Positions 9,002-47,401 of a DNA stretch of 48,806 nucleotides are shown here, one piece after another. The translations under genes were made by a program, and so were the position numbers. The stretch's first letter is position 1. The number at the start of each line of letters is the position of its first letter. The notes beneath the pieces were generated by a model. That model was not told the origin of the DNA. It saw only the letters and a program-made list of their open reading frames with translations, and did no database searches. Origin of the DNA: Candidatus Methylomirabilota bacterium (lineage in GTDB: Bacteria > Methylomirabilota > Methylomirabilia > Rokubacteriales > CSP1-6); contig DATIFV010000163.1 in the NCBI GenBank assembly GCA_035455085.1, forward strand, positions 1 to 48,806, read 5' to 3'.

Positions 9002-10662
9002 CGGCCCGCCTCCTCTCGCTCCGGCGCGGACCGGCCCAGGTCGCGCTGGAAGTCGCCCACGTCGCGGAGGAGGCGGCCGACCTCGACCGGCGAGTACCAG
9101 CGCGCCCGCAGGCGTCCCTCCGGCGCGGCCTTCAGCGCGGGGAGACGCCGGCCGGTCAGCCGCTCGGCCAGCCACTGGCTGCCCTCGCGGAACGGGCAGT
9201 CCTCGGGAATGCAGCCGGCCACGAAGACGCCGGCGGCCCCGGCCTCTATCGTCTTCGTGATCATGTCCGGGTGGAGCATCCCGACGCAGGGGAGCCCCAT
9301 CACGGTGACGCCGGGCAGCGCGGCCAGCGTGCCGTCGGCGGCGAGCCGACCCGCGAGGCTCCGCATCATGCGGCAGGTGTAGACGAGCACGGGCGCCCGA
9401 CCTTCGCGGGCGCTCACGCCGCGCAGCCGGGCGGTCACCGCCTGGCCCAGCAGGCTCACCGGCTGATCCCCCAGCAGGATCCCGGCCGAATCGCAGGCGC
9501 CGACGCAGATGCCGCACCCCACGCACTTGGCGGGGTTCACCACCGCCACCTGCTTGTAGCGGGTGCCGTCGTGCCGCGGCACCATCACGATGGCCTCGTA
9601 GGGGCAGTCCTTCCAGCATCGCGTGCAGCCGGTGCACGCGATGTTCTCGACCCGGGCCCGCGCCGGTGCCGGCCCGCGCAGGACCCACGGCACCACGAGC
9701 GCGGCCGCCCCGCCGATCAGGAGCAGACCCCAGCCCCACCGGGGGTCCAGGCGCGTGAGCGGGAAGTAGAAGAAGTAGAACCAGTCGATGGGGATCGTCC
9801 CGGGCAGGCGCCCCAGGTCCGCCGGGGGGCCCGAGAGCGCCGGCCGCAGCACGCTCGCGATCAGCAGGGCGGCGCCGGTCACCGCGAGGACGATCCGCGG
9901 CGGCATGAAGCGCGCCCGGGAGAGGCGCATCACGTGCAGCCAGTAGGCCGCCCCGAGCAGCAGGGGGATCGTGACGTGGATGAAGAGCACGAGGAAGAAG
10001 AGGAAGTTCTGGATGCGCCCGGCGTCGAGGAAGGTGCGGACCAGCGGCTCGCCGAACACCGGCAGCACGTCGAGCAGCTTGGCGATGGTGACCGAGAGCA
10101 CCTGCGCCTGCATGTCCCAGACCAGCCAGTAGCCGGTGGCGCTCGTCACCCAGACGAGGCCGAGCAGGGTGAGCCCCGACACCCAGCCGATCCAGCGCGC
10201 TCCCCAGAACCGGTCGTTCAGGAACATCTTGAGGCCGTGCAGCGCGGCGGCCACGATCGCCGCGTCCGAGGCGTAGCGGTGGAGCGAGCGCATGAGGGCG
10301 CCGATGCCCCACGGCTGCGCCATGATCTCCTCGATGGAGCGGTGCGCCTCCTCGGTGCCCACGCGATAGAAGAGGAAGAGGTAGATGCCGGTCACCAGGG
10401 CCACCGCCAGCGAGAACACCGCGATGGTGCCGGTGTGGTAGAGCGGGTTGAGGGGCGCCGATACCAGCCGGTCGAGCAGCGCCTCGATCCACTGGTAGGC
10501 CGCTCCGGCCCGGAGGAGCGCGCGCCGGTGCAGGCGCTCGCGCGGGCCCGTGACCGGGAAGACGGGCGGGAGCGCGGCGACCGGCCCGAGCGGGAACGGC
10601 GGCGGCACCCCCGGCGAGCCGGACTGCACGCCGCTCGGCCCGTCGAGGACAGGGTCGTGCAC
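8998..10662 (-). CDS. fusion protein: di-haem cytochrome b (N-terminal domain) + 2x[4Fe-4S] ferredoxin + MvhD/FlpD-like domain
   Basis: The GTG at 10662 follows the Sco stop by 2 nt. Two His pairs are each separated by 13 residues (SLHRYASDAAIVAAALH; FIHVTIPLLLGAAYWLH). These are followed by CTGCTRCWKDCP and CVGCGICVGACD, then GLPCVGM...VAGCIPEDCPF. The exact start is uncertain. Confidence 0.8.
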   Translation of the reverse strand: MHDPVLDGPSGVQSGSPGVPPPFPLGPVAALPPVFPVTGPRERLHRRALLRAGAAYQWIEALLDRLVSAPLNPLYHTGTIAVFSLAVALVTGIYLFLFYRVGTEEAHRSIEEIMAQPWGIGALMRSLHRYASDAAIVAAALHGLKMFLNDRFWGARWIGWVSGLTLLGLVWVTSATGYWLVWDMQAQVLSVTIAKLLDVLPVFGEPLVRTFLDAGRIQNFLFFLVLFIHVTIPLLLGAAYWLHVMRLSRARFMPPRIVLAVTGAALLIASVLRPALSGPPADLGRLPGTIPIDWFYFFYFPLTRLDPRWGWGLLLIGGAAALVVPWVLRGPAPARARVENIACTGCTRCWKDCPYEAIVMVPRHDGTRYKQVAVVNPAKCVGCGICVGACDSAGILLGDQPVSLLGQAVTARLRGVSAREGRAPVLVYTCRMMRSLAGRLAADGTLAALPGVTVMGLPCVGMLHPDMITKTIEAGAAGVFVAGCIPEDCPFREGSQWLAERLTGRRLPALKAAPEGRLRARWYSPVEVGRLLRDVGDFQRDLGRSAPEREEAGR

Positions 10663-10664
10663 GC

Positions 10665-11561
10665 CTACCCCCGCTCCGCGAGCAGGCGCCCGAGTTCCTC
10701 GGCCTGGCGCTCCTCGGGATGGGCGAGGCCCCGATAGGTGAAGGCCAGGCGGCCGGCCCGATCGATGAAGGCCACGACGTTCTCGTGGGCGATCTCGCCG
10801 TCCGGCAGGGGCGCCCACTGCACCCGGTAGTCGCGGACGACCCGCCTCACCGTCGCGGGGTCGCCGCTCAGCAGATGCCAGCGCGGCCCGAGACCCCAGT
10901 GGGCGGCCGCCGCGGCCAGGGCGGCCGGCGTGTCCCGCTCTGGGTCGAGGCTCACCACCACGAAGGCGACCTCCGCCCGGGGCCGGCGGGCCTCGAGGGC
11001 CTTCAGGCGCTCGATCAGGAGCGGGCAGGAGGCGTGACAGCTCGCGTACGCGAACGTGAGCACCACCGGCCGGCCCCGGAAGCTCGCGAGCGAGACCGGC
11101 TGACCGCGATGGTCGACCAGACGGAGCTCCGGCGCCGGGGCCCCCTGGCGCAGCGGCGGCGGGAGCGTCGCCGGCGTGTAGCCCGTGCCGGAGGCCGAGA
11201 TCTCGCTGGTGGCGAGCAGCGAGGCGGCGAGGGCCATGAAGAGCAGCGGGGCCCCGATCGCGGCGAGCCGTCCCCCGCGCGCGCGGAGGAAGGCGCGCAG
11301 GTCGTCGCGATAGAACACGTACACCACCAGGGCGAAGAGGGGCGGCTGGAGCAGGGTCAGCAGGAGCGCGTCGAGACGGTAGTGCCGGGTCTCGGCGTTC
11401 CAGCCGAAGCATACGGTCAGGAGGGTATCGATCCACGGCGAGGATCCGCCCGCGAGCCCGGGGCCCAGCAGCAGGAAGGCGACGGTCCCGGCCCCCAGTC
11501 CGAAGATGGCCAGCACGAGGGCGGGCGCGAAGAGCCGGTGGGTCAGCAGGCCCGTCACCAT
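10665..11561 (-). CDS. SCO1/SenC copper chaperone with polytopic N-terminal membrane extension
   Basis: The ATG at 11561 overlaps the ctaB stop by 7 nt. Thioredoxin-fold motif FAYASCHASCP (CxxxC) plus a downstream His (IAHENV). About 120 N-terminal residues carry 3-4 hydrophobic segments. Confidence 0.8.
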   Translation of the reverse strand: MVTGLLTHRLFAPALVLAIFGLGAGTVAFLLLGPGLAGGSSPWIDTLLTVCFGWNAETRHYRLDALLLTLLQPPLFALVVYVFYRDDLRAFLRARGGRLAAIGAPLLFMALAASLLATSEISASGTGYTPATLPPPLRQGAPAPELRLVDHRGQPVSLASFRGRPVVLTFAYASCHASCPLLIERLKALEARRPRAEVAFVVVSLDPERDTPAALAAAAAHWGLGPRWHLLSGDPATVRRVVRDYRVQWAPLPDGEIAHENVVAFIDRAGRLAFTYRGLAHPEERQAEELGRLLAERG

Positions 11562-12424
11562 CTCCGGAGCCCCGCGTCCAGCACCACCCCCAGGAAGAGC
11601 AGCAGCAGGAACAGGTTCGAGGCGTGGAAGTTGGCCAGCGCGAGCCGCCGGTCCGTCGGCCGGCGGAGCAGCTCGAGGTTGCGGGCGAGGAGCAGGCCCC
11701 CGCCCGTCACCACGCCGACGAGCAGGTAGGGCCAGCCCAGCAGCCCCATCGCGAAGGGCAGCACGCTCGAGGCGAGCAGGCCCACCGTGTTCAGCAGGAT
11801 GCTGCGCGCGGTGCGGGCCTCGCCCTTCACCGCGGGCAGCATCGGGATCCGCGCGCCCGCGTAGTCGCTCTTGTAGGCAATGGCGAGCGACCAGAAGTGC
11901 GACGGGCTCCAGAAGAAGAGCACCGCCGCGAAGATGACCGGCGGCAGGCACAGCTCGGGACGGGCCAGCGCCCCGCCCGCGAGTACCGCGAAGGAGCCGG
12001 CGAGGCCCCCGATGACCACGTTGAGCCACGAGCGGCGCTTGAGCCAGATCGTGTAGATCACCACGTAGGTGAAGGCGCCGAGGAAGAGGTGCAGGGCCAC
12101 CAGGCGGTTCAGCCGCCACAGGGCCACGCTCACCGCGAGCGCGACGAGGCCGAGCCCCAGCGCCACGACGTGCCAGCCGTGGCGGATCTTTCCCGAGGGC
12201 AGGGGGCGCCGCGCGGTCCGGGGCATCCGGGCATCGAGATCGCGGTCGAGGAAGTGGTTGAGAGCCCCCGCGCCACCCGCCGCCATCACGGTCACCGCGA
12301 AGAGCAGCCCGAGCGACGGCAGCGACAGCCCCGCGGGCGCGGTGGCCAAGTAGCCCAGCACCGCGGCCATGCCGATGAAGGTTCCGACCCGGAGCTTGAG
12401 CGACTCGACGTAGGCGATGATCAT
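11555..12424 (-). CDS. ctaB: protohaem IX farnesyltransferase (haem O synthase)
   Basis: ATGA overlap with the upstream gene. UbiA-family motif NHFLDRDLDARMPRTARRPLPSG. 289 aa and polytopic. Confidence 0.9.
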   Translation of the reverse strand: MIIAYVESLKLRVGTFIGMAAVLGYLATAPAGLSLPSLGLLFAVTVMAAGGAGALNHFLDRDLDARMPRTARRPLPSGKIRHGWHVVALGLGLVALAVSVALWRLNRLVALHLFLGAFTYVVIYTIWLKRRSWLNVVIGGLAGSFAVLAGGALARPELCLPPVIFAAVLFFWSPSHFWSLAIAYKSDYAGARIPMLPAVKGEARTARSILLNTVGLLASSVLPFAMGLLGWPYLLVGVVTGGGLLLARNLELLRRPTDRRLALANFHASNLFLLLLFLGVVLDAGLRRW

Positions 12425-13848
12425 CGCGCACCTCCCCGTCGCAGGAGCGGGAGGCCCATGTTGATCACGAAGGCGAGCCCGCCCACGATGGCCAGCACCG
12501 AGCCCGCGCCCATCAGGTTCATCCCGATGAGCGCCTGCGCGTTGGCCCAGCTGAAGCCGAAGGTCTTGCGCGGCGCCCCGTGGCCGCCCGCCCAGTGCAT
12601 GCCGGCCATGATGCCGAGCAGCCCCAGCCCGTAGAGGTACGGCTGCCAGCGCGCCCAGCGCTCGCTCAGCGGGTGCCGGCCGGTCAGGCCCAGCAGCAGA
12701 GGGGTCAGGGCCATGTAGGAGAGGGTCACCGCGCCCACCATGCCGTGGTAGTGGGCGGGTACCCGCGTGTCCTGGGTGAAGCCGATGAGGCCCATCACGC
12801 CGCCGATCGCGAAGAGCGCGAACGAGACCACGGTGCCGCCGAAGAGGGGGCTGCCCCACGGCAGCGGCCGGGGCGCGGCGGCCACCACCGCCACCGCCAT
12901 GAAGAGCAGGGGCACCGCGCCCGCTCCGAGCCCGCCGAACGTCAGGATGGTGATCAGGTGATTGACGAGCAGCTCCTCGGGGCGCCACAGGAGATAGGCC
13001 GCGCCGGAGGCGACCGCGAACGGCGCCAGGATGGCCAGCAGCAGGCGCACGACGCGCCGGGCCGACGGGGCCATCCCGAGCGCCACCGCGAGCGCCACCA
13101 GCCAGCCCGTGGCCATGCCGGCCACGTGGAGGAACTGGAGCACGTGGCCGCCGCCCCAGACCACCGCCCGGAGCGTGTAGCCGAACGGCACCGCAGGGTC
13201 CGCGGCCGCGGCCGCGCGCATGAAGGCCGCGGCGGCCACGAGGACGGCGAGCGCCGCCACCGCCATCGCGAGGCCCTCGGGCGATTCGACCGCCACTCGC
13301 CCGCGCTCGCGCCGCAAGAGCACCGCCGCGGCTCCGCCCAGGTAGGCGGCGGCCTGGATGCCGACGCCGGCCCCGAGCAGGACGAGGCCGGTCCAGAAGA
13401 ACGGATGGTCGATCACCGGCAGGTAATCGTTCAGGTACGGCTGGCCCGAGGCGAGGAAGGCGGGCACCGCCATGGCCGCCGACCCGACCACCGACAGCCC
13501 GAGGGCGGCCCACGAGGCGGGGGCGCTCAGCGGATAGCCCGAGCGCCAGGCCACGTACACCCAGAGCACGCCCGCGAAGGCGACGAACCAGACCGTGAAG
13601 GCGAACGTCACGTGCGAGGTGAGCGCGAGACGGAACTGGGCGGCGTCGAAGAGGGTGTGGACCACCGGGGTGCGGGCGAAGGCGGCCAGCATGGCGAAGA
13701 AGCCCGCCACCACCAGCGAGCCCAGCGCCAGCCCGAGCCAGCCCACGATCAGGCGGCGCACGGGGCTCGGTACCGGCGAGGCCGGGTCGGCGCGCCGGCC
13801 GCGGTCGCGCGGCCGGCGATCGAGGAGGAAGGTCGCGTCGGGATTCAT
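12421..13848 (-). CDS. degenerate haem-copper oxidase subunit-I-like membrane protein (CuB His pair absent)
   Basis: 475 aa, starting 10 nt after the subunit I stop with a GGGGGTG RBS. Aligns by eye to the adjacent subunit I: the helix II His (TSHVTFAF), helix VI His (WGGGHVLQF) and helix X AHYHGMVGAV are retained. HHLLVDPQL of subunit I corresponds to AYLLWRPEEL here. Confidence 0.7.
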   Translation of the reverse strand: MNPDATFLLDRRPRDRGRRADPASPVPSPVRRLIVGWLGLALGSLVVAGFFAMLAAFARTPVVHTLFDAAQFRLALTSHVTFAFTVWFVAFAGVLWVYVAWRSGYPLSAPASWAALGLSVVGSAAMAVPAFLASGQPYLNDYLPVIDHPFFWTGLVLLGAGVGIQAAAYLGGAAAVLLRRERGRVAVESPEGLAMAVAALAVLVAAAAFMRAAAAADPAVPFGYTLRAVVWGGGHVLQFLHVAGMATGWLVALAVALGMAPSARRVVRLLLAILAPFAVASGAAYLLWRPEELLVNHLITILTFGGLGAGAVPLLFMAVAVVAAAPRPLPWGSPLFGGTVVSFALFAIGGVMGLIGFTQDTRVPAHYHGMVGAVTLSYMALTPLLLGLTGRHPLSERWARWQPYLYGLGLLGIMAGMHWAGGHGAPRKTFGFSWANAQALIGMNLMGAGSVLAIVGGLAFVINMGLPLLRRGGAR

Positions 13849-13858
13849 TGCGCACCCC

Positions 13859-15532
13859 CTACTTGATGATCCAGATGGCGGCCAGCCATTTCCAGTTGAG
13901 GAAGTAGTAGATGACGAAGGACGCCAGGAACACGAAGACGAGCACGAGGGTCCCCTTGATGGGCACGTGCTGCCCGCGGTCCTGGGGCAGCGCGGCCAGC
14001 GGCACCGCGCCCGCGGTGTCCGGCACCCGCCGCCCGAAGAGCACCGAGCCCACCGTGATCACCACGTAGAGGGCGCCGCCGGCCAGCGCGAAGAGCCCGC
14101 CCACGCCCATGATGCCGAGGAAGGCGAAGGCGGCCGCTTCCACCGGCGGCTGGAAGATCGACGAGGTGAACTGCACGTCCCAGTGCCGCCGCGGGATCGC
14201 GTAGGACCCGGCGGTGGTCATGCCGCCGATGAAGATGGTCATGCCGATGGCGAAGAGGTAGATCTGGGTCGTGGCGAGCTTCACCGAGATCAGATGCCGC
14301 CGGAAGATGAGCGGCACCACGTAGTACGTGAGTCCCATGAACGCGATGGTGGTGCCGGCGACCACGGTGGCGTGGAAGTGGCCGGTGATGCGCAGCGTGT
14401 TGTGGGAGATGATGTTGACCTGCTCGGCGCCGAAGGTGACGCCGGTGATGCCGCCGATGAAGCCGAAGAGCACCAGCGACAGGGCCAGCGCCGCGAAGCC
14501 CGGATTGCCCCACGGGGCCTTGGCCAGCCACTCGAAGAGCCCCTTGGTGAGCCCCTTCTTCCGCTGTGCGACCTCCACCGACGCGGGCACCGTCATCCCG
14601 TGGACCATGCTCGCGAGCACGGCCAGGTACATGCCGTAGCTGGTGTTCCAGATCTTCCACGCCGGCGAGAGCTGGGGATCCACGAGCAGATGGTGGGCGG
14701 AGGCCAGGTTGATGAAGAGGATGTAGAGGAGGAAGGCGGATCGGCAGACCTTCTCGTTCACCGGGGTCGCCCCCACCGTGAGGGTGGCCAGGAGGTACCA
14801 GATCGTGACCATGGCGCTCACGTTGATCTGCTGGGAGCTGTGCCCGAGGCCCCACCAGACCAGGCGGTAGATGCCGGGATCGATGGTCTGGATGATCCCC
14901 AGCGACCAGAGCCACGTGGGGACATAAATGATGGCCCCGTGGGCCAGGGTGACCACCGCGATGATGCCCGCGGTGGCGGCCCCGAAGGTCACCAGCGGGA
15001 TCGAGCCCTCGTACGTCCGCTCGGCCCGCGCGACCACCAGGCTCGCGAAGAAGTTGCAGACGCCGACGAGGGCGCCGACCGCGAACAGGATCCAGCCCAG
15101 GTAGAAGTAGGACACCGCCTGGAGGGGGGCGTAGGAGGTCATCATCACGTCGGCGCGGCCCGCGAGGATCGCGACGTCGATGAGCACCGAGCCTGCCACC
15201 ATGAGCGCGAACCCGAGCCAGCCCACCCGCGGCCAGGCGAGGCGGCTTCCCAGCACGATGGGCCCGGCAAAGTAGAGCACCGCGATCTCGAAGAAGATGA
15301 TCCAGAAGATCAGCATGTTGATGCCGTGGAAGGTCAGCGCTCGGTAGAAGCTCGTCGGGTCCAGCAGGTGGACGGCGGGCCAGCGGGTCAGCAGCACGAG
15401 AATTGCCGCGATGCCGCCGAAGAGGATGGAGAACACGCCGGCCACCGCGTGGACCTTGATGAGGCGCTCGGCGTGGTTGTGGACTCGGAGGCCGGTCTGG
15501 GCGCACGTTCTGAAGACGGCTTCGGTTGCCAT
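13859..15532 (-). CDS. haem-copper oxidase superfamily subunit I, B-family (ba3)-like, lacking the cross-linked Tyr
   Basis: 557 aa. AGGAGG RBS overlaps the subunit II stop. Metal ligands: LTFHGINML, WWGLGHSSQQ, ASAHHLLVDP, ITGHFHATV. Collinear with my recollection of Thermus CbaA, including LFEWLAKAPWGNPGF. Confidence 0.9.
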   Translation of the reverse strand: MATEAVFRTCAQTGLRVHNHAERLIKVHAVAGVFSILFGGIAAILVLLTRWPAVHLLDPTSFYRALTFHGINMLIFWIIFFEIAVLYFAGPIVLGSRLAWPRVGWLGFALMVAGSVLIDVAILAGRADVMMTSYAPLQAVSYFYLGWILFAVGALVGVCNFFASLVVARAERTYEGSIPLVTFGAATAGIIAVVTLAHGAIIYVPTWLWSLGIIQTIDPGIYRLVWWGLGHSSQQINVSAMVTIWYLLATLTVGATPVNEKVCRSAFLLYILFINLASAHHLLVDPQLSPAWKIWNTSYGMYLAVLASMVHGMTVPASVEVAQRKKGLTKGLFEWLAKAPWGNPGFAALALSLVLFGFIGGITGVTFGAEQVNIISHNTLRITGHFHATVVAGTTIAFMGLTYYVVPLIFRRHLISVKLATTQIYLFAIGMTIFIGGMTTAGSYAIPRRHWDVQFTSSIFQPPVEAAAFAFLGIMGVGGLFALAGGALYVVITVGSVLFGRRVPDTAGAVPLAALPQDRGQHVPIKGTLVLVFVFLASFVIYYFLNWKWLAAIWIIK

Positions 15533-15541
15533 GGGGGCCTC

Positions 15542-16069
15542 CTACTCGACCGTGATCTTGCCCACCATCTGGTGGTGCCCGATCCCGCAGAACTCGTTGC
15601 AGACCACGAAGACCTCGCCGCTCGTCGTCGGGGTGATGGTGAGCACGTACTCGTAGCCGGGCAGGACCATGAAGTTGAGGTTCAGGGGGAAGAGCGAGAA
15701 GCCGTGGACGAGGTCCATGGAGGACAGGTGCAGGCGGTAGGTCTCGCCCTTCTTGAGCTTGAGTGCCGGGTACCACTGCCAGAGCCTCCCCAGCATGTAG
15801 ACGTCCTGCGCGGGATCGGGGGCGATCACCGGCAGCCCCTTCTCTTCCCCGACCTTCGGTCCGGACTCGACGAAGGCCTCCACCTTCTCCATGTACTGCG
15901 CCGGGGTGGTCCGGTAGGTCTCGAAGGACGGGTTCTGGCCGCCCTTGAGATGCCAGAGCGGCATCATCGCGAAGAGGATGAGGCACCACAGGAGCGCGAT
16001 CGCGAGCCAGATCTTCTCGCTCGCGTCGACTTTCTTCCACCACACGCCCTTGAGAGTCTGCAGGCTCAT
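15542..16069 (-). CDS. haem-copper oxidase subunit II, short single-TM cupredoxin with complete CuA site
   Basis: 175 aa. DLVHGFSL plus CNEFCGIGHHQM (C-x3-C-x3-H-x2-M). No cytochrome c domain. Confidence 0.9.
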   Translation of the reverse strand: MSLQTLKGVWWKKVDASEKIWLAIALLWCLILFAMMPLWHLKGGQNPSFETYRTTPAQYMEKVEAFVESGPKVGEEKGLPVIAPDPAQDVYMLGRLWQWYPALKLKKGETYRLHLSSMDLVHGFSLFPLNLNFMVLPGYEYVLTITPTTSGEVFVVCNEFCGIGHHQMVGKITVE

Positions 16070-16078
16070 GGCGGTCTC

Positions 16079-16240
16079 CTACCTCGCAACCGGGATGGTG
16101 GCGATCTCGAACAGGCCCCAGATCGTGTAGAAGACCACCGGGACCGTGAGCCCGAGCACCAGCAGCAGGAAGATGTTGTCGAAGAACACCTGGGCCAGCG
16201 GCACCCGGTCGTCGTCCTTGGCGGTCTCTTTGTCGGCCAT
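16079..16240 (-). CDS. 53-aa single-TM protein, putative oxidase subunit IIa-like; not in ORF track
   Basis: ATG at 16240 preceded by GGAGGGG. MADKETAKDDDRVPLAQVFFDNIFLLLVLGLTVPVVFYTIWGLFEIATIPVAR. The stop lies 9 nt before the subunit II ATG. Confidence 0.6.
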   Translation of the reverse strand: MADKETAKDDDRVPLAQVFFDNIFLLLVLGLTVPVVFYTIWGLFEIATIPVAR

Positions 16241-16317
16241 GGCCTACCCCTCCAGTCGGCACGTGTGAAGGCTGCTGGTCGTGTGGACCGAGCGTAGAGC
16301 GCGGGGCGATCGGCGGC

Positions 16318-16335
16318 CTATGACCTGGGTCATAG
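16318..16335. promoter_or_regulatory. 18-bp palindrome CTATGACCTGGGTCATAG, putative Crp/Fnr-type operator of the oxidase operon
   Basis: Perfect 8+2+8 palindrome. Its centre is ~86 nt upstream of the ATG at 16240. TACGCT (TAnnnT) lies 21 nt downstream on the - strand, a class-II-like geometry. Confidence 0.6.
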
Positions 16336-16340
16336 AGGGG

Positions 16341-16392
16341 CAAGAAACCCTCTCCTCCGCGAGGGGGAGAGGGCGGGGTGAGGGGGAGGGGG
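16341..16392. repeat. REP-like element copy A: hairpin CCCTCTCCTCC-GCGA-GGGGGAGAGGG followed by CGGGGTGAGGGGGAGGGGG
   Basis: Read directly. On the - strand the hairpin is followed by TTTCTTG, so it probably also terminates nirK. Confidence 0.7.
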
Positions 16393-16413
16393 CGTCCGCC
16401 CGGGGCTGCGGTC

Positions 16414-17478
16414 CTAGTGCCCGCCCGTCCCGTGGGTGCCCGGCACCAGCGTCCGGAAGATGCCGGGCTGCTCGGCGCCCGCCACCTCCAGGACCCCGAG
16501 GGCGCCCTTCTCCATCGCCCGCACGATGCTGTGGTCCACGAGCAGGAAGCGCCCCGGCACCTGCACCGTCATCTCCACGATGGCCGCGCCGCCCGCCGGG
16601 ATCAGGGTGGTCTGCACGTTCTGGGCCGGAGCGCCGGCGCCCAGCGCGCCCTCGGTGTAGACGTGGTCGAAGATCTCGCCGATCACGTGGAAGGAGGAGA
16701 TGAGGTTGGGCCCGCCGTTGCCCACGAAGAGCCGGACCTGCTCGCCGACCTTCGCGTGGATCGCCCCCTCGCCCGCGAGCGCGCCCATCTTGCCGTTGAA
16801 CACCACGTACTCGGGCCGCTCCGCGGTCAGCTTGGCCGGATCGAGCGGCTGGAGCCCCGGCGCGAGCGTCCTGCCCTTGGTATAGAACTCGCCCTGCATG
16901 ACGTAGTACTCGCGGTCCACGCGGGGCAGCCCCTTCTCGGGCTCGACGAGGATCAGCCCGTACATGCCGTTGGCGATGTGCGCGGGCACGCTCGGGGTCG
17001 CGCAGTGATAGACGTAGAGCCCGGGGTTCAGCGCCTTGAACTCGAAGGCGCCTTCCTGGCCCGGCCCCAGCTGGGTCACCGCCGCGCCGCCGCCCGGCCC
17101 GGTCACCGCGTGCAGGTCGATCGAGTGCGGGTGCATGCTCTTCTCCGCGTTCCTGAGGCGGATCTGCACGACGTCACCCACGCGCACCCGGACGAAGGGA
17201 CCCGGCACCGTGCCGCCGAAGGTCCAGAACGTGTACCGCACGCCGTCGGCGAGGGTGCCCGTGACCTCGGTGGTCTCGAGATCGACGATCACCTTCGCGT
17301 TGCCGGGGCGGTCCACCGGCGGCGGCACGAGCGGGGCCGAGGTGAGGATGGCCTTCACTTCCGGGAGCGCGGCGGGCTCGGCGGCCTTGTCGCGGGCCTG
17401 GCTCTGCCAGATCATCGCGCCCGCCACCAGCAGCCCGGCCGTTGCCAGCGTCGTCATCGTGGTCAACCCCCGTCTCAT
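16414..17478 (-). CDS. nirK: copper-containing nitrite reductase
   Basis: 354 aa with a signal-like N-terminus. Type-2 Cu motif [14 protein letters not shown] and type-1 Cu motif [29 protein letters not shown]. Confidence 0.92.
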
Positions 17479-17599
17479 CGCTCGCCTCCTGGTAGTCTGT
17501 TTGCCTTACTCGCCCTGGTGTGCAAGGCCGGTGCCCGAGAGACCCTGCCCCCGGTCGCTGCGCTATATCAACAGGATGGGCCCGGATGCCGGCGGGCAA

Positions 17600-17617
17600 G
17601 TATGACGCGGCTCATAG
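17600..17617. promoter_or_regulatory. palindrome gTATGACGCGGcTCATAG, putative Crp/Fnr-type operator upstream of nirK
   Basis: Same 7-N4-7 motif with a mismatch at the outermost position and one inside the right arm. Centre ~130 nt upstream of the nirK ATG. CATCCT lies 21 nt downstream. Confidence 0.5.
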
Positions 17618-17685
17618 GCTGGATGACGGGGTGCGGGGCGGTGGCGCCTCACGGTGAGGCACCGTCTCCGCGCAGGAGATGCGGG

Positions 17686-17973
17686 CTAGGGGCGGGGGTC
17701 CAGGGCGATGCGGTCGGGGGTCCAGGGCGGCTCGAAGGTGATGGCCACCTCGACGGCCTCGACACCCGGGATCCGCGCGACCGCCTGCCGCACCCACCCG
17801 GCCATGGAGTCGTGGAGAGGGCAGCCCGGCGCGGTCAGGGTCATGGTGACCTGCACGCGGCCGCCGTCGATCTGCACGCCGTAGATCAGCCCGAGATCCA
17901 CGATGGACATCCCGAGCTCGGGATCGAAGACGTCCCGGAGCGCCTGCGTGACCTGCCCGTGGGTGACGCTCAC
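17686..17973 (-). CDS. DUF59 (SufT/MIP18-like) metal-sulfur cluster assembly factor
   Basis: The GTG overlaps the radical SAM stop (GTGA). DPELGMSIVDLGLIY...LTAPGCPLHD...PPWTPDRI. Confidence 0.8.
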   Translation of the reverse strand: MSVTHGQVTQALRDVFDPELGMSIVDLGLIYGVQIDGGRVQVTMTLTAPGCPLHDSMAGWVRQAVARIPGVEAVEVAITFEPPWTPDRIALDPRP

Positions 17974-19115
17974 GCGTGGACCTCCCGCACGACGGGCTCG
18001 TGGGCGCACCCCGGATCCTCCGCCAGCGGGTTTCCGGTGAGCGCGTAGGCCCGCGCGCGGCTGCCCCCGCAGCGCTCGCGCCACTCGCAGCGCCCGCAGC
18101 GGCCCCCGAGCCGCGCCGGATCGCGCAGGGCCACGAAGAGCGGGTGCTCCCGGTAGACCGCGACGAGGTCGTCTCGCCGGACATTGCCGACCGGCAGCGG
18201 CAGGAACCCGCTCGGGCAGATGTCGCCGCGATGGTCCACGAAGACGAAGCCGTTGCCATCGGTGACCGCGCGCCCGGCGCGCATGCTTGGCCGCCCGCCG
18301 GATGTCCGAGACGGTTGTCCGCCGCTGGGGGAGTGCGGGGGCCATGTCTGGGCCCCCGCAGCTGAAGAGCTTGAAGAAGTAAACCAGTCTGCCCTCGCCG
18401 CCTCCGCGAGGACACGGTGGTAATGCGGGGCCTCCGTCGTCTTGATCCCGAAGGGGACGCGGCCCTGGAGGTCGGCCGCCCAGTGCAGCGCCTCCTCGAT
18501 CTCGCCGGCGGTGAGGCCCTGGTCGACCTGGGCGCGCCCTACCGGGATGAGGAAGAAGAGCGCCCAGAGGAGCACGCCGAAGCCGGTCACCTGGTTCACC
18601 AGTGCGGGCAGCTCCTTCACGGTCTGGCGGCAGACGGTCGTGTTGACCTGCAGCCCGAGCCCGAGCGCCCGCGCCCGCTCGATGATCCGGAGGGTGTAAC
18701 GGTGGGAGCCCCGCACGCCCCGGAAGGCGTCGTGGGTCTCCGGCCCGGCGCCGTCGAGGCTCACCGCGAGGCGGGCCAGCCCCGCATCCCGCAGGGCGCG
18801 GAGCTTGCCCTCGGTCACGGCGGCGGTTGCGCTCGGGGTCAGCGACACCATCAGGCCCCGGCGCGTGCCGTGCGCGACCAGCTCGGCGATGTCGGGACGC
18901 CGCAGCGGGTCTCCACCGGTCAGGACCACGAGCGGCGGCGGATCGCCGAAGGCGGCGATGCGGTCGAGCAGCGCCTTGCCCTCGTCGGTGGTGAGCTCGC
19001 CCGGATCGCGGCGCGGGATGGCCGCGGCCCGGCAGTGCACGCAGGCCAGCGCGCACGCCCGCGTCGTCTCCCAGATCGCGATGAAGGGGCTCCACGCGAA
19101 CACCGATGTCTCCAT
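17970..19115 (-). CDS. radical SAM/SPASM enzyme, NirJ/AhbD-like
   Basis: WETTRACALACVHCRA (CxxxCxxC), LTGGDPLRRPD, and a C-terminal SPASM Cys cluster CGRCEWRERCGGSRARAY. The ATG at 19115 lies 1 nt after the upstream stop. An alternative GTG start is at 19124. Confidence 0.85.
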   Translation of the reverse strand: METSVFAWSPFIAIWETTRACALACVHCRAAAIPRRDPGELTTDEGKALLDRIAAFGDPPPLVVLTGGDPLRRPDIAELVAHGTRRGLMVSLTPSATAAVTEGKLRALRDAGLARLAVSLDGAGPETHDAFRGVRGSHRYTLRIIERARALGLGLQVNTTVCRQTVKELPALVNQVTGFGVLLWALFFLIPVGRAQVDQGLTAGEIEEALHWAADLQGRVPFGIKTTEAPHYHRVLAEAARADWFTSSSSSAAGAQTWPPHSPSGGQPSRTSGGRPSMRAGRAVTDGNGFVFVDHRGDICPSGFLPLPVGNVRRDDLVAVYREHPLFVALRDPARLGGRCGRCEWRERCGGSRARAYALTGNPLAEDPGCAHEPVVREVHA

Positions 19116-19116
19116 G

Positions 19117-20430
19117 TCACCCACGCGCCGCCAGCGTGTGTCCCGCCTCCTCGCGGGTCGGTCGTCCGCCAGCCGAGAGCCGCCTCAGCACCCGCGCGAG
19201 CGCTCCCGCGAACGCGAGCGCGCCCAGCGCGAGCACGCCGCCGGCCATGCGGATCAGGACGGCGTCGCCGACGAGGACGGTGACGGCCAGCAGCGCCGTT
19301 CCGCCGGTGAGCAGCACGTAGGCCAGCCCCTCCGCCCGCGGCCAGGAGATCTGCGCCAAGGTCGGCACCGGCTCGCGGCCCGCGCGCGGGCTGTACGCGC
19401 GGTACCAGACCAGGAACGGGACGATCTTGAGCATCATCCCGGCGATGGTGAGGGAGACCCAGCCGCCCAGCGTCACGACGGCGTAGGCGAGCGCCACGCG
19501 GGGCCCGCCGAGGAGATCCGCGGCCATCGCCACCCCGAGAACGGCGGCGGGGGCGAGGAACGCGGCGGCGGTGAGGACGAAGCGGAGCCCCCAGTCGAGA
19601 CCGGGCCGCTTTCGCCGCCACGCCATCTCTGCCATCCAGGCCGCGTGGGCTCCCGCTGCCACCGCCACCGCGAGCGCGCCGATCACGAGGAGCCCCGGCA
19701 CCCCGAGGAGGCCCAGCACCACCGCCGGCCCGCCGGCCACGAGGCCCCAGAGCTGCAGGGCGGAGTGCGCCGGCCGGGGCGCGGGGGCGAGGAAGAACAT
19801 CGGATACACGCGTGCGGACACGGCGGCGATCATCGGCGCCACCCAGCCGAGGAGGGCCAGCTGCACGTGAGCGTGCAGGGTCGGGAAGAGCTCCCCCGGG
19901 AGGAACGGCCAGATGCGGTTGACCGCCAGGGCCAGGCCGAACACGGTCGTCAGGGCGAGCCCGCCGTAGCCGACCACGACGAGCCGCGCGGTGAACGTCC
20001 AGCGGTCGAAGCCCTGCAGGCTCATCCCGACGTTGACCAGGTGCGCGACGATGCCCACCGCCAGCATCCCCGCCGCGGACGCCAGCCCGGGCCAGGTGCC
20101 CAGGTAGAAGTGGGCGACCATGCCGATCACCGCGACCGCCAGGACGGCGAGCTCCCAGCGGGCGAGCCGCTCGCTCCAGATCGGCCGCTCGAGCACGATC
20201 GGGACGAGCTGGTAGCTGGCGCCCAGGATCGCGATCGTGATCCAGCCGAGCGTGACGGTGTGGGTGAGCGCGAGCAGTCGCGGGTGGTAGTAGTGGCCTG
20301 CCAGCTCGGGGCCGAGCCAGGTCACCCCGAGCGCGGCCGTCAGGAAGGCCGCCGCGGAGCAGACCAGGTAGGCCAGCGGGACGAGGGGCGAGGGGCCGCT
20401 TCCGGGCCGCGGCGGCACCGGCATGCTCAT
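19117..20430 (-). CDS. polytopic (about 12 TM) His-motif membrane protein, NnrS-like
   Basis: 437 aa. ATGA overlap with the upstream gene. Repeated module LTHTVTLGW...ASYQLVP / TLHAHVQLALLGW...ARVYPMF. The family assignment is from memory of the NnrS HAHE motif and is not verified. Confidence 0.6.
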   Translation of the reverse strand: MSMPVPPRPGSGPSPLVPLAYLVCSAAAFLTAALGVTWLGPELAGHYYHPRLLALTHTVTLGWITIAILGASYQLVPIVLERPIWSERLARWELAVLAVAVIGMVAHFYLGTWPGLASAAGMLAVGIVAHLVNVGMSLQGFDRWTFTARLVVVGYGGLALTTVFGLALAVNRIWPFLPGELFPTLHAHVQLALLGWVAPMIAAVSARVYPMFFLAPAPRPAHSALQLWGLVAGGPAVVLGLLGVPGLLVIGALAVAVAAGAHAAWMAEMAWRRKRPGLDWGLRFVLTAAAFLAPAAVLGVAMAADLLGGPRVALAYAVVTLGGWVSLTIAGMMLKIVPFLVWYRAYSPRAGREPVPTLAQISWPRAEGLAYVLLTGGTALLAVTVLVGDAVLIRMAGGVLALGALAFAGALARVLRRLSAGGRPTREEAGHTLAARG

Positions 20431-21269
20431 GCCGGGCCCCTGCGGATGAGGATGCGCACCAGTCCCGGCTCCGGCTCGTCGGTCTGGTGGACGAAGCCGC
20501 GCTCGTCGAGCTGCGGGTAGAGGAACATCGGGCGGCGCTCGTGGCGGACCTCGAGCTCCGAGCCCGGCTCGAGCCGGTCGATTGCCTCCAGCACCCGCAC
20601 CATGGGCTGCGGCGGCTCGAGCCCCCGCACGTCCAGCACGGTGCGCCCGCGCGGGGCGGGCGCGGGCGGCGCCGCCGGCTCTGCGCGCGGAGCGGCGGCG
20701 GCGCGGTAGAAGGCGACGGACCAGTCGTCGTCGGCGCGGCGCTCCGTCCAGTGCGCGAAGCCGCGCTTGGCCAGCACGTCGTAGAGCGGGATGGGCTCGA
20801 AGGGCGCGCGGAGTACCAGCGCCTGGTCGGCGTTCAGCGCCTTGACCGCGGCCATGATGCGCGGGAACGGCTCCCGGCCCAGGCGGATGTCCTCGCGCAC
20901 GTCGACGTGGACTTGGCGGGCCTCCGGCACGTCGACGAGCGCGCGCGGCGGCCCACCCTCACCCCGGCCCTCTCCCTCGAAGGGGGCCGTCCCGCCTCTC
21001 GCCTCGGGGGAGACGGCAGGGTGAGGGGGCCCAGGGTGAGGGGCTTCCGGCGACGCCTCCCCCACCGCCTGCCGCAGCACGGCCAGGAGCTCGTCCACCG
21101 GAACGCCGGCCATGCCGGCGGCCTCGGCGACGGTCACGCGCGGCGCCATGACCCCCCGGAGCAGCGGGTTCCGGAGCTGGCCGAAGTGCGGGTGGTAGCC
21201 GGCCAGCACCTCGACCAGCTCCGGATGCTCGTCGAGCAGCCGGGCCACCGTGACGTCGCCCGAGATCAT
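20427..21269 (-). CDS. DUF1858 + two DUF2249 domains protein
   Basis: Starts at the ATG at 21269 (MISGDVTVARLLDEHPELVEVL). Two SirA/TusA-like repeats (VHVDVREDIRLGREPF...; VLDVRGLEPPQPMVRVLEAI...). The linker is encoded by REP-like repeats. Confidence 0.75.
   Translation of the reverse strand: MISGDVTVARLLDEHPELVEVLAGYHPHFGQLRNPLLRGVMAPRVTVAEAAGMAGVPVDELLAVLRQAVGEASPEAPHPGPPHPAVSPEARGGTAPFEGEGRGEGGPPRALVDVPEARQVHVDVREDIRLGREPFPRIMAAVKALNADQALVLRAPFEPIPLYDVLAKRGFAHWTERRADDDWSVAFYRAAAAPRAEPAAPPAPAPRGRTVLDVRGLEPPQPMVRVLEAIDRLEPGSELEVRHERRPMFLYPQLDERGFVHQTDEPEPGLVRILIRRGPA
20952..21043. repeat. REP-like element copies B1/B2 (head-to-head) inside the DUF1858/DUF2249 coding sequence
   Basis: CCACCCTCACCCCGGCCCTCTCCCTCGAAGGGGG (reverse orientation), then CCGCCTCTCGCCTCGGGGGAGACGGCAGGGTGAGGGGG plus an extra CCCAGGGTGAGGGG. 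Confidence 0.65.
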
Positions 21270-21340
21270 GCGGGGGTCTTTCCCTCGAGCGCGCCGAGCA
21301 GGGTGACGGCGACCGGGGCGTCGCTGCACTCGTGAGCCAT
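21266..21340 (-). CDS. 24-codon upstream ORF (MAHECSDAPVAVTLLGALEGKTPA) coupled to the DUF1858 gene; not in ORF track
   Basis: ATG at 21340 with GAGGAGG 6 nt upstream. Its TGA overlaps the ATG at 21269 (ATGA). Confidence 0.45.
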   Translation of the reverse strand: MAHECSDAPVAVTLLGALEGKTPA

Positions 21341-21385
21341 GTCGATCCTCCTCGCTGCCACCCTAGCGCCGGATCGTCGGGCTCC

Positions 21386-21403
21386 CTATGACGTCGGTCA
21401 TAG
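21386..21403. promoter_or_regulatory. palindrome CTATGACGTCGGTCATAG, putative Crp/Fnr-type operator of the DUF1858 operon
   Basis: Perfect 7-N4-7 palindrome. TAGGGT lies 20 nt downstream on the - strand, followed by the RBS of the upstream ORF. Confidence 0.6.
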
Positions 21404-21419
21404 CGAGCCGGCCCGGAGG

Positions 21420-21887
21420 CTACGGAAGGGGGTGGACGCTCAGGATGATCGCGTCGATGCGATCGAGGGCCGGGTACGCGGCGATCACCCTGACGAAGTA
21501 GCCGTCGAGGTTGTGCCACCCCCGGCTGTCGCGCCTCACCAGATCGGCCCGCGGCCGGGCCGGCAGGTTGACGGCCTCGAGCGCGGCTTCGTAGGTGCGC
21601 GGGGCGAGGGCGGCGTCGGGGAAGGCGATCACCGCGGTGGTGCTCTGCTCGGCCTCGAAGTCGATGTCGATCCGCACCCCGCGCCCGTCGTACGTGCGCG
21701 AGGTGCCGCCCGCGGGTAGCTGGAAGTCCCCCGGGGCCACCGCGCTGGTGCGCACCGGCTGTCCCAGGACCGCCCGGACCGCCGCCGGCGACTGCTGGAG
21801 GATCGTCGACGGATCCAGCATCCCGCCCGCGACTGCCGGCGATCCCGGGGTCAGGGTCAGCCACCCAAGCACCAGCAGCCCTGCCAC
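21420..21887 (-). CDS. small secreted hypothetical protein
   Basis: GTG at 21887 preceded by AGGAGG with 6-nt spacing. Signal-like VAGLLVLGWLTLTPGSPAVAGG. The upstream part of ORF 21420..22133 is Arg/Pro junk. Confidence 0.55.
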   Translation of the reverse strand: MAGLLVLGWLTLTPGSPAVAGGMLDPSTILQQSPAAVRAVLGQPVRTSAVAPGDFQLPAGGTSRTYDGRGVRIDIDFEAEQSTTAVIAFPDAALAPRTYEAALEAVNLPARPRADLVRRDSRGWHNLDGYFVRVIAAYPALDRIDAIILSVHPLP

Positions 21888-22077
21888 CGGGGCCCTCCTG
21901 CGCTCGTGTGCCGGAATCGCTCGATCCTCTTGGGGCCTCGCGTTTGCACGTGGAGTGCCAGCCCCGAAGTGCCGGGAAACCGGATACTTCGGTGATCCCC
22001 GGTCCGCTCGACATGGGGCACGCGGGCCGCACCGCGGCCCCCGCGCGCCCCGCAGGCCCCGTGCTATCCTGCCGCCG

Positions 22078-22779
22078 ATGCCTGCCAAGGAGCTCGCCGC
22101 TTTCCTGGGCCGGAACCCGGTGTTCGCGGGCATTCCGGCGCGCGAGATCGAGTCGCTGGCGCGCGTGGCGCTGGAGGAGGCGCATCGGGCGCGCGCCTAC
22201 GTCTTCATGGAGGGTGACGCCGCGCGCTGGTTCTACGTGGTGCGATCGGGTCACGTCAAGATCGTGCGCCATTCCAAGACCGGCAAGGACGTGGTGCTCG
22301 AGCTGCTGGGGCCCGGCGAGGTCTTCGGGGGGGTGGCGGTGATCGAGCGACGCCCGTATCCGGCGAGCGCGCAGGCCACCGAGCCCACGGTGGTGCTGAA
22401 GGTCCCGGCGGATCCGGTGATCGCGCTCGCCGAGCGGCACCCGACGTTCATCAAGGAGATGGCGCTGATGATCGGCCGGCGCCTGCGCGCCGCGCACGAC
22501 TCCGTCGCCTCGCTCGCGGTGGATCCGGTCGAGGCCCGCCTCGCCGCGACCTTGCTCCGGCTGGCGACGCGCGAGGGGACCAAGAGCGACCGGGGCGTGA
22601 CCCTGCCGTTTCATCTCACCCGGCAGAGCCTGGCCGACATGACCGGCACCACCGTGGAGAGCGCGATCCGGATCCTGAGCCGCTGGCTCCGGGACGGCCT
22701 GCTCGCGGAGGACGGAGGCCGCCTCGTCCTCGCCGACTGGGAAGGATTGCGGGCGCTGACCGAGGGCGAGGTCGACTAG
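22078..22779 (+). CDS. Crp/Fnr-family transcriptional regulator without any Cys
   Basis: ATG at 22078 inside ORF 21595..22779. cNMP-like beta-barrel (FMEGDAARWFYVVRSGHVKI) and HTH LTRQSLADMTGTTVESAIRILSRW. Confidence 0.88.
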   Translation: MPAKELAAFLGRNPVFAGIPAREIESLARVALEEAHRARAYVFMEGDAARWFYVVRSGHVKIVRHSKTGKDVVLELLGPGEVFGGVAVIERRPYPASAQATEPTVVLKVPADPVIALAERHPTFIKEMALMIGRRLRAAHDSVASLAVDPVEARLAATLLRLATREGTKSDRGVTLPFHLTRQSLADMTGTTVESAIRILSRWLRDGLLAEDGGRLVLADWEGLRALTEGEVD

Positions 22780-22780
22780 G

Positions 22781-23224
22781 ATGACTCCGCTCATCCGGCG
22801 CTACATCAAGACGAGCTTCCTCTTCCTGCTCGTCGGGCTCCTGCTCGGGGCCTACATCGTGGTCGGCCAGTTCGTCCTCGAGGAGTACCCGCCCCGTCTG
22901 CTCGTCACGGCCCACGCCCACCTGCTGCTGGTCGGCTTCATGCTGATGATGGTCATGGGGGTCGCCACCTGGATGTTCCCGCGCCCGGCGCGCGACGACA
23001 CCCGGTACCGGCCCGAGCTGGCCGAGGCGGTCTACTGGGTGATGACGACCGCCACCGCGCTGCGGGCGGCGGCCGAGATCAGCGTGGGGCTCGCCGGGAT
23101 GCTCGGACTGCGGTGGCTCATCGCGCTGGGCGGGCTGGGGCAGCTGGCCGGGACCGCGCTCTTCGTGCTGAACATGTGGCGGCGCGTGCGCATGCCGCCC
23201 GCGGCGGCGCCCCCCGCCCGCTGA
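22781..23224 (+). CDS. 4-TM His-motif membrane protein, single-module paralogue of the 12-TM protein
   Basis: The ATG lies 1 nt after the crp-family stop. PPRLLVTAHAHLLLVGFMLMMVMGVATWMFP parallels HPRLLALTHTVTLGWITIAILGASYQLVP of the 437-aa protein. Confidence 0.7.
   Translation: MTPLIRRYIKTSFLFLLVGLLLGAYIVVGQFVLEEYPPRLLVTAHAHLLLVGFMLMMVMGVATWMFPRPARDDTRYRPELAEAVYWVMTTATALRAAAEISVGLAGMLGLRWLIALGGLGQLAGTALFVLNMWRRVRMPPAAAPPAR

Positions 23225-46163: not shown

Positions 46164-47401
<1,238 letters not shown>

Follow-up and report, generated by a model that had tools for sequence, protein, structure and literature searches.

A palindromic box, TATGAC-N4-GTCATA, precedes three adjacent minus-strand transcription units in a stretch of 48,806 nucleotides from a Candidatus Methylomirabilota bacterium (contig DATIFV010000163.1, positions 1 to 48,806; hereafter, the window). 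The units are an operon that most likely encodes an eNOR-type nitric oxide (NO) reductase, the nitrite reductase gene nirK, and an operon of accessory genes. We consider it likely that the box is the site of a homodimer of the Crp/Fnr-family regulator encoded at 22078-22779, which would be a class II activator of all three units. The first-pass annotation of the window had described three copies of an 18-bp palindrome, and reading of the window sequence confirmed each of them:

16318-16335, minus strand: box 1, CTATGACCTGGGTCATAG (core 16319-16334, centre 16326.5; matrix score 30.7); 86.5 nt from its centre to the ATG of a 53-amino-acid (aa) open reading frame (ORF) heading the eNOR-type operon
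17600-17617, minus strand: box 2, GTATGACGCGGCTCATAG (centre 17608.5; matrix score 22.6); 130.5 nt from its centre to the nirK ATG
21386-21403, minus strand: box 3, CTATGACGTCGGTCATAG (centre 21394.5; matrix score 30.4); 54.5 nt from its centre to the ATG at 21340

The 18-bp palindrome is present as described, but its informative core comprises 16 bp, TATGAC-N4-GTCATA, and the outermost position is merely C/G-biased. In the matrix obtained from 53 related loci, the informative positions were T-A-T-G-A-C at -7.5 to -2.5 together with their mirror image, C/G was preferred at ±1.5, and the C/G bias at ±8.5 was weak.

Analysis of the window confirmed that the three boxes are genuine sites, far above chance. 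The 18-mer pattern with up to 3 mismatches matched the window four times (0.42 expected), and the matrix from related sites, at a score of at least 14, matched it three times (0.01 in shuffled sequences). Because the G+C content of the window is approximately 72%, a palindrome that contains A and T is especially improbable by chance. Further, when genes were called by third-position G+C, the minus-strand block at 8369-21887 had only three intergenic gaps longer than 15 bp, and all three carried a box, in agreement with the earlier remark that the boxes occupy the sole sizeable gaps. The statement that the window contains no further full copy also stood, as weaker matches at 22781, 8178 and 40437 were all dismissed. 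The match at 40437 is intragenic and departs from the pattern at 3 positions. ATGACTCCGCTCAT at 22781-22794 represents the codons M-T-P-L-I of the conserved N-terminus of the next gene and scored below 6, and CTGACCCGGGTCAT at 8178-8191, which scored 6.7 and lies in the convergent intergenic region 3' of the eNOR-type operon, probably arose by chance.

Conservation of the box and promoter geometry

We compared the window with 53 loci (826 kb), which were collected by a genome scan using an alignment of regulator homologues; most are labelled as Rokubacteria/Methylomirabilota metagenome-assembled genomes (MAGs). With one mismatch at most, TATGAC-N4-GTCATA occurred more than 50 times in the 826 kb, in which approximately 0.002 perfect copies are expected by chance (a rough, composition-based estimate). 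The matrix scan detected 67 intergenic sites and 3 sites within called ORFs, although 86% of this DNA is coding. Equal abundance in coding DNA, which the first-pass annotation had named as evidence against a regulatory motif, was thus not observed in the related loci.

The same targets recurred across the loci, namely the eNOR-type operon, nirK, and an operon of ScdA_N and DrpB-like genes. The box centre was located 80-87 nt from the ATG of the 53-aa ORF at the eNOR-type operon, and an orthologue of box 1 was present at the same distance in L001, L012, L013, L017 and L033. Orthologous nirK boxes were found in L001-L005, L007 and L009-L011; box 2 has one mismatch in the 16-bp core, and the nirK boxes of L001, L002, L003 and L005 are perfect. 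In relatives, the unit behind the nirK box sometimes includes a cupredoxin or cytochrome c gene. Among the approximately 27 loci with the ScdA_N/DrpB-like operon, the box centre was mostly 53.5-59.5 nt from the first ATG. Some loci possessed further targets: a gene for a NarG-like molybdoenzyme with a cytochrome c/EB_dh subunit, and cytochrome c plus cupredoxin genes. These results support the conclusion that the box is a control site, conserved upstream of these three gene groups across dozens of Rokubacteria loci, counted at species level.

A separate CRP-like element, TGTGN-N6-TCAC, was centred approximately 19 bp upstream of the box centre of the ScdA_N/DrpB operon, at approximately -60.5, in L007 (10757-10772) and also in L012, L013, L017, L024, L035, L037, L042 and L043; it is missing from the window. 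This element suggests that a second Crp-family protein may act at the ScdA_N/DrpB promoter in some lineages.

On the coding strand, each box of the window is followed by a -10-like hexamer 20-21 nt downstream, as had been proposed from the first reading:

16291-16296, minus strand: TACGCT, first base 30.5 nt from the centre of box 1 and 21 nt after the 18-mer
17573-17578, minus strand: CATCCT, first base 30.5 nt from the centre of box 2 and 21 nt after the 18-mer
21360-21365, minus strand: TAGGGT, first base 29.5 nt from the centre of box 3 and 20 nt after the 18-mer

Hexamers of the cAtcCT type were found at the matching spacing in the nirK promoters of relatives. When 49 non-redundant promoters were aligned on the box centre and oriented toward the gene, a TAnnnT hexamer started at +29.5 in 26 of them and at +30.5 in 6 (32/49 together), and was the sole conserved element between the box and the Shine-Dalgarno sequence. 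If TAnnnT occupies -12 to -7, the box centre would lie at -41.5 or -42.5. In ScdA_N promoters, the sequence GGAGGA lies between the box and the first ATG, which is 53.5-59.5 nt from the centre; as both are so close, a transcription start near +41.5 would leave a leader of 12-18 nt. The best match to the -35 sequence TTGACA was no better than at random genomic positions, and a scan of 16000-22200 for a sigma70 consensus promoter gave no match.

In L057, L109 and the Nitrospirota loci, each gene of a divergent pair has a box of its own, placed at the class II distance. The paired boxes are separated by 36 bp in L057 and L109 and by 66-74 bp in L174-L176. The presence of two boxes per pair argues for a position-dependent activator site rather than a shared operator. 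The class II Fnr/Dnr-like geometry that had been suggested for the window is therefore supported by the spacing of 29.5/30.5 bp, the lack of a -35 element and the box pairs. Note that in class II promoters the site lies near -41.5 and replaces the -35 element; the geometry observed here matches this arrangement, with transcription starts predicted from TAnnnT.

The candidate regulator and alternative binders

The candidate binder and the gene that follows it are encoded next to the three units:

22078-22779, plus strand: Crp/Fnr-family regulator, 233 aa, without cysteine; candidate binder of the box
22781-23224, plus strand: p147, a 147-aa four-helix COX1-like membrane protein; starts 1 nt after the regulator stop

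The regulator contains PF00027 (5.8e-21) and PF13545 (6.3e-17), which place it in the Crp/Fnr superfamily, and none of its 233 residues is cysteine, as the first-pass annotation had stated. It is encoded by the only DNA-binding regulator gene in the window, the whole of which was annotated; the other genes considered as possible regulators encode receiver-only response regulators, a PAS hybrid kinase, a cyclase-AAA-TPR protein and an IS3 transposase. The recognition helix reads G190-T-T-V-E194-S-A-I197-R198 and the pocket carries the signature RP-YPASA-A-E. GTTVE(T/S)xIR was invariant in 51 of the 53 loci, that is, in all loci in which the helix was readable. An exact-sequence look-up of the 233-aa protein returned no record; its homologues are 80-97% identical proteins from Candidatus Rokuibacteriota metagenomes. 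Because of the 1-nt gap, the p147 gene is probably co-transcribed with that of the regulator, and a p147 homologue is a direct box target in the Nitrospirota loci.

The regulator was found to be nearest to DnrT of Thermus, its closest characterised relative (33% identity, E = 1e-27; RP-YPASA-A-E in common), rather than to Fnr or Dnr. By sequence it is not FNR or CRP proper, and it is probably not DNR proper. FNR proper was rejected on the lack of cysteines for a [4Fe-4S] cluster and on the NCBIfam Fnr model (61.6 bits; cutoff 228), and also by the reading of DNA, given the box TATGAC-N4-GTCATA and a helix in which Ser is replaced by Ile. CRP proper was rejected because the E72 position is G85, the R82 position is Y94 (GlxR/CRP alignment) and R180 is Val193; the score for the CRP equivalog was 65 bits (cutoff 266). 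Sensing of cAMP was likewise rejected, as the contact residues are absent. None of the NCBIfam equivalogs was reached by the regulator, and its match to P. aeruginosa DNR (PDB 3dkw; E = 1e-10) was weaker than that to actinobacterial CRP/GlxR (E = 1e-24). Elsewhere in the window, a 1105-aa class III adenylate/guanylate cyclase-AAA-TPR protein is encoded at 29299-32616 (plus strand), 6.5 kb from this regulator without cAMP-contact residues, and an IS3-family transposase (orfA/orfB) lies at 46164-47350 (minus strand), near the window end.

A motif-first scan of metagenomes with the query CTATGACSNNSGTCATAG yielded 120 stretches, approximately 25 of which were promoters of the Rokubacteria regulon. 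In L071, L073, L119 and L156, regulators of 35-38% identity keep the helix GTT(V/I)ET(S/C)IR beside the same box, which there precedes ric, DUF1858 or p147-like genes; the L156-type regulator belongs to Nitrospirota MAGs. Further, two boxes lie between p147-like and DUF1858 genes in each of L174-L177, Nitrospirota loci that were retrieved via protein identity instead of the motif; their regulators, also just 35-38% identical, keep the helix as well. The pairs of regulator and box in Nitrospirota and other distant lineages are the strongest evidence that this subfamily and the box belong together. The proposal that the Cys-less regulator is the candidate binder is thus supported by the invariant helix and by the co-occurrence with the box in a second phylum. 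The box itself, as originally noted, keeps the TGA-N6-TCA heart of the Fnr box and is a distinct variant of it.

From these sequence data, we infer the identity of the binder, the direction of its effect (activation) and the positions of the transcription starts. A dimer of the regulator would be centred approximately 41.5-42.5 bp upstream of each transcription start, where it would stand in for the missing -35 element and recruit RNA polymerase to the weak TAnnnT promoters. The eNOR-type operon, nirK and the accessory operon (ScdA_N remnant, DrpB-like protein, membrane protein, radical SAM protein and DUF59 protein) would then be switched on together, and their joint product would be a module that converts nitrite to NO and NO to N2O, equipped with accessories for NO damage and signalling. 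DnrT of Thermus is reported to be insensitive to O2 and nitrate and to act through its concentration (PMC6282519; PMC5748679). Control may therefore lie upstream of the regulator, possibly via the adjacent PAS hybrid kinase or the DrpB-like protein.

Several observations weigh against this model. Because the 53 loci were fetched via the regulator, the co-localisation of regulator and box among them is built into the sampling; independent evidence comes only from the motif-first metagenome scan and the Nitrospirota loci. In 32 of the 120 metagenome stretches, the identical 18-mer CTATGACSNNSGTCATAG lies between divergent TetR and approximately 143-aa tautomerase-like genes of other organisms (G+C 0.60-0.72; for example, L079 1316, L128 2827 and L069 2195, within L054-L173), so that the family of the binder cannot be told from the sequence by itself. 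At these pairs, CTATGACSNNSGTCATAG is probably an operator for TetR proteins, and its identity to the box would be the result of convergence. A TetR binder in Rokubacteria was rejected, as no TetR or tautomerase homologue was found in any Rokubacteria locus. As for the signal, His36, His59, His65 and His140 are invariant in the Rokubacteria regulators and variable across the wider subfamily, and a DNR-like heme sensor is therefore not supported. Finally, a conserved sigma54-like element precedes nirK (see below), and the -10 hexamer at box 2 is a weak one; transcription of nirK may depend mainly on a promoter not driven by the box.

It is unlikely, in our judgement, that the box is bound, alone or together with a Crp-type protein, by a regulator encoded elsewhere, for which an Rrf2/NsrR-type NO sensor would be the main candidate. 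In Thermus, the palindrome CTTGACCNNGGTCATGG is present in the nirJ, norC, nrc, nsrR and nsrS promoters and has been assigned to the Rrf2 protein NsrR-Th by electrophoretic mobility shift assay (EMSA) and deletions (Alvarez et al., 2017, PMC5748679). NsrR-Th shifts fragments with CTTGACCNNGGTCATGG but not the deletions, and DnrT produced no EMSA shift (PMC5748679), which also counts against the neighbouring Crp-type regulator as the reader of the box. We confirmed the Thermus boxes in two plasmids, and the regulons of Thermus and of the loci studied here overlap in ScdA_N/NsrS, DrpB, DUF59 and TIGR04053 radical SAM proteins. However, an Rrf2 profile built from E. coli IscR and NsrR, which detected Thermus NsrR (E = 1e-8), gave no match with E <= 10 when run against the six-frame ORFs of the window and of the Rokubacteria (53) and Nitrospirota loci, which span ±10 kb around each regulator, whereas nsrR of Thermus lies inside the cluster. 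Further, a 6-4-6 palindrome with a TGA-N6-TCA core, located at -41.5 in promoters with no -35 element, is a signature of Crp/Fnr proteins, and the box accompanies a Crp-type regulator across two phyla.

Even less probable is a role of the box as a repression operator, at which the neighbouring or another protein would lie over the -35 region and block RNA polymerase until a signal removes it. The box does overlap the expected -35 position, the same 18-mer is apparently a TetR-type operator between the divergent TetR/tautomerase-like genes of other taxa, and Thermus NsrR represses PnirS through a copy of the palindrome (PMC5748679). However, promoters whose -10 hexamers are weak and in which no -35 element can be recognised would need an activator to work well, and Rokubacteria loci lack the TetR and tautomerase homologues. 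The fixed distance from box to -10 hexamer and the doubling of boxes at divergent genes also fit activation, whereas a repressor would tolerate variable placement. That the three copies are chance occurrences or non-regulatory repeats, such as hairpins or remnants of mobile elements, is effectively refuted by the number of sites (3 observed, 0.01-0.4 expected), their 67-to-3 intergenic distribution in related genomes, their fixed distances to the -10 element and start codons, and an Rfam scan of 16000-22200 that gave nothing relevant and no family overlapping the boxes.

Genes of the three target units

The first target operon (8369-16240) consists of eight genes:

16079-16240, minus strand: 53-aa ORF, first gene
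15542-16069, minus strand: cupredoxin subunit II (COX2), directly upstream of subunit I
13859-15532, minus strand: heme-copper subunit I, with Gln in place of the cross-link Tyr
12421-13848, minus strand: very divergent COX1-like protein (PF00115, just 41.6 bits), directly after subunit I
11555-12424, minus strand: UbiA/heme O synthase
10665-11558, minus strand: SCO1
8998-10662, minus strand: cytochrome b/4Fe-4S/FlpD fusion
8369-9001, minus strand: 210-aa protein without assigned function, last gene

The best PDB match of subunit I was the ba3 enzyme of T. thermophilus (E approximately 1e-40), and the Tyr in the G-H-P-I-x-Y motif of ba3 aligned with a Gln in the GHSSQQ sequence of subunit I. 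Two features identify eNOR (PMC8756737): a subunit I that derives from the B family and has Gln where the cross-linked Tyr would be, and a gene directly upstream for a cupredoxin subunit II. The Tyr-to-Gln substitution is also used as a diagnostic of the eNOR NO reductase in PMC11214002. Operon 1 possesses both the Gln and the upstream COX2 gene. Because Gln replaces the cross-linked Tyr, the operon most likely encodes an eNOR-type NO reductase, and we replaced the earlier label of oxidase operon accordingly.

The nirK unit and its surroundings contain the following features:

16414-17478, minus strand: nirK, copper-containing nitrite reductase (TIGR02376, 340 bits; cutoff 296)
16348-16365, minus strand: terminator-like hairpin with T-tract (TTTCTT), just after the nirK stop and just before box 1
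17521-17535, minus strand: sigma54-type -24/-12-like element GGCACCGGCCTTGCA, between box 2 and nirK
L001 5325-5339, L002 2061-2075, L003 6944-6958, L004 2311-2325, L007 13322-13336 and L009 13241-13255: sigma54-like element of nirK in relatives

The hairpin between the nirK stop and box 1 supports the earlier view that the boxes head separate transcription units. GGCACCGGCCTTGCA is the sole exact sigma54-type match in the window, and GGCAC-N5-TTGCA occurs approximately 45 nt upstream of the nirK ATG in the window and at least six orthologous loci. A further match at L006 13197-13211 probably belongs to nirK too; the locus ends there. This conservation suggests a second, enhancer-dependent promoter, so that nirK may have two promoters. 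No sigma54 activator gene was seen in the window. A sigma54-like element with one mismatch was also found at 21945-21959 (minus strand), upstream of a secreted-looking 155-aa gene (21420-21887) that lies between box 3 and the regulator; in relatives, this element precedes the 155-aa gene at L020 9872-9886, L084 226-240, L125 2102-2116 and L163 666-680.

The third target operon (17686-21269) and the short ORF before it are as follows:

21266-21340, minus strand: 24-codon ORF (MAHECSDAPVAVTLLGALEGKTPA) with a GGAGGA ribosome-binding site; its TGA stop overlaps the ATG of the next gene
20427-21269, minus strand: protein with DUF1858 and two DUF2249 domains (DrpB homologue)
19117-20430, minus strand: 437-aa COX1-like membrane protein
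17970-19103, minus strand: TIGR04053 radical SAM/SPASM protein
17686-17973, minus strand: DUF59/FeS_assembly_P protein, last gene

The 24-codon ORF still encodes both termini of the 83-aa ScdA_N/DUF542 protein of relatives (L001 and L006; PF04405) and, judging from these ends, is an in-frame deletion remnant of the ScdA_N gene that has lost approximately 59 codons. The DUF1858 protein is 36% identical to Thermus DrpB over 99% of its length. The box does lie upstream of what had been called the DUF1858 operon, but the first ORF is the ScdA_N remnant, and the DUF1858 protein is better described as a homologue of Thermus DrpB.

Rokubacteria are abundant, uncultured soil bacteria, and the box and its candidate regulator bear on the control of nitrite, NO and N2O turnover. 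The box allows regulons to be predicted directly from MAGs. Further, the box that they have in common provides separate evidence for joint work of NirK and the eNOR-type enzyme in one module that makes and consumes NO, and it ties several poorly understood proteins, namely DrpB-like DUF1858/DUF2249 proteins, small ScdA_N proteins, COX1-like membrane proteins and TIGR04053 radical SAM proteins, to this module in three phyla.

Comparison with known regulators

When the literature was searched for the motif string, the HcpR1 and Anr boxes were the only results, and a search for Rokubacteria together with nirK and Crp found nothing on regulation in Rokubacteria. NnrR of alpha-proteobacteria recognises the box TTGCG-N4-CGCAA and has a regulon of nirK, nor and nnrS. 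It is a functional analogue of the candidate regulator, being a Cys-less Crp/Fnr activator of nirK, NO reductase and membrane accessory proteins; however, its box has a different sequence and there is no close sequence kinship.

FNR, ANR and DNR bind the box TTGAT-N4-ATCAA, which is centred at -41.5 in class II promoters, and the FNR helix V-E-T-I-S-R reads it via E209, S212 and R213. These systems and the window have in common a palindrome of 14-16 bp with a TGA-N6-TCA core, the replacement of the -35 element, and target genes for anaerobic metabolism or denitrification. Glu and Arg of the FNR helix (E209/R213) correspond to E194/R198 of the window regulator, whereas Ser212 corresponds to Ile197. 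Likewise, the FNR box has T at ±6.5 and ±2.5, where the window box has A and C, respectively. Position ±6.5 is the classical discriminator base between CRP, with its box TGTGA-N6-TCACA, and FNR. By analogy, A at ±6.5 may be linked to Ile197, which would add a third state to the CRP/FNR rule: G with Arg180, T with Ser212 and, here, A with Val/Ile.

The HcpR1 box, wyTTGACnnnnGTCAArw, was predicted by comparative genomics in delta-proteobacteria and cyanobacteria (Rodionov et al., 2005, PMC1274295). Common to HcpR1 and the window are the TGAC-N4-GTCA core (C at ±2.5) and a Cys-less Crp/Fnr regulator beside NO-related targets (hcp and norB). In contrast to the window, HcpR1 sites have T rather than A at ±6.5, CRP position 180 is Ser/Pro rather than Val, and the regulon consists of hcp/frdX rather than nirK and a heme-copper NO reductase.

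In Thermus, the Crp-type protein DnrT is the genetically proven master activator of the nar, nrc, dnr and drp promoters (PMC5748679; PMC6282519). These promoters carry (T/A)TGAC-N4-GTCAT, and the Thermus palindrome overlaps the DnrT footprint on Pnrc (PMC5748679). As in the window, the core is TGAC-N4-GTCAT (one Thermus copy reads ATGACCCAGGTCAT), the boxes precede denitrification genes (in Thermus, 50-73 nt before the start codons), and DnrT, like the window regulator, has no cysteine. Common targets are DrpB, which has the architecture DUF1858 plus two DUF2249 domains (Chahlafi et al., 2018, PMC6282519), a small ScdA_N protein, DUF59, a TIGR04053 radical SAM protein and nitrate reductase. 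On the Thermus plasmids L179 (19786-23584) and L180 (25285-29083), the gene order drpA-drpB, 144-aa hypothetical protein, protoglobin, 383-aa hypothetical protein and DUF59 resembles that of the Rokubacteria operon, and a second box, ATGACC-N2-GGTCAT, precedes the 383-aa gene.

The two systems also differ. The Thermus box is asymmetric (TTGAC and ATGAC halves) and flanked by G/C, whereas that of the window is symmetric, both halves reading TATGAC, and has T-A at ±7.5 and ±6.5. The helix of DnrT reads GTVPEAVSR (FNR-like E--SR), compared with GTTVE(S/T)xIR here. Thermus nsrR lies in the cluster, whereas no Rrf2 gene was found within ±10 kb of the regulators examined, and the Thermus enzymes are NirS and cNOR, in contrast to NirK and the eNOR-type enzyme of the window. 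We tentatively propose, with slightly less than even confidence, a hitherto unrecognised cross-phylum Crp/Fnr subfamily in Rokubacteria/Methylomirabilota, Nitrospirota and at least two further lineages. In abundant, uncultured soil bacteria, this subfamily would serve as master switch for modules of NirK/eNOR-type denitrification and of NO stress. Its marks would be the pocket RP-YPA(S/N)A-A-E, the Ile-containing helix GTT(V/I)E(T/S)xIR, and the box TATGAC-N4-GTCATA with A at ±6.5; the Thermus palindrome would then be primarily or jointly a DnrT site. Whether DnrT, NsrR or both read that palindrome thereby becomes a directly testable question. The system in the window follows a textbook regulatory principle in a form specific to its lineage, and an analogue is documented in Thermus.

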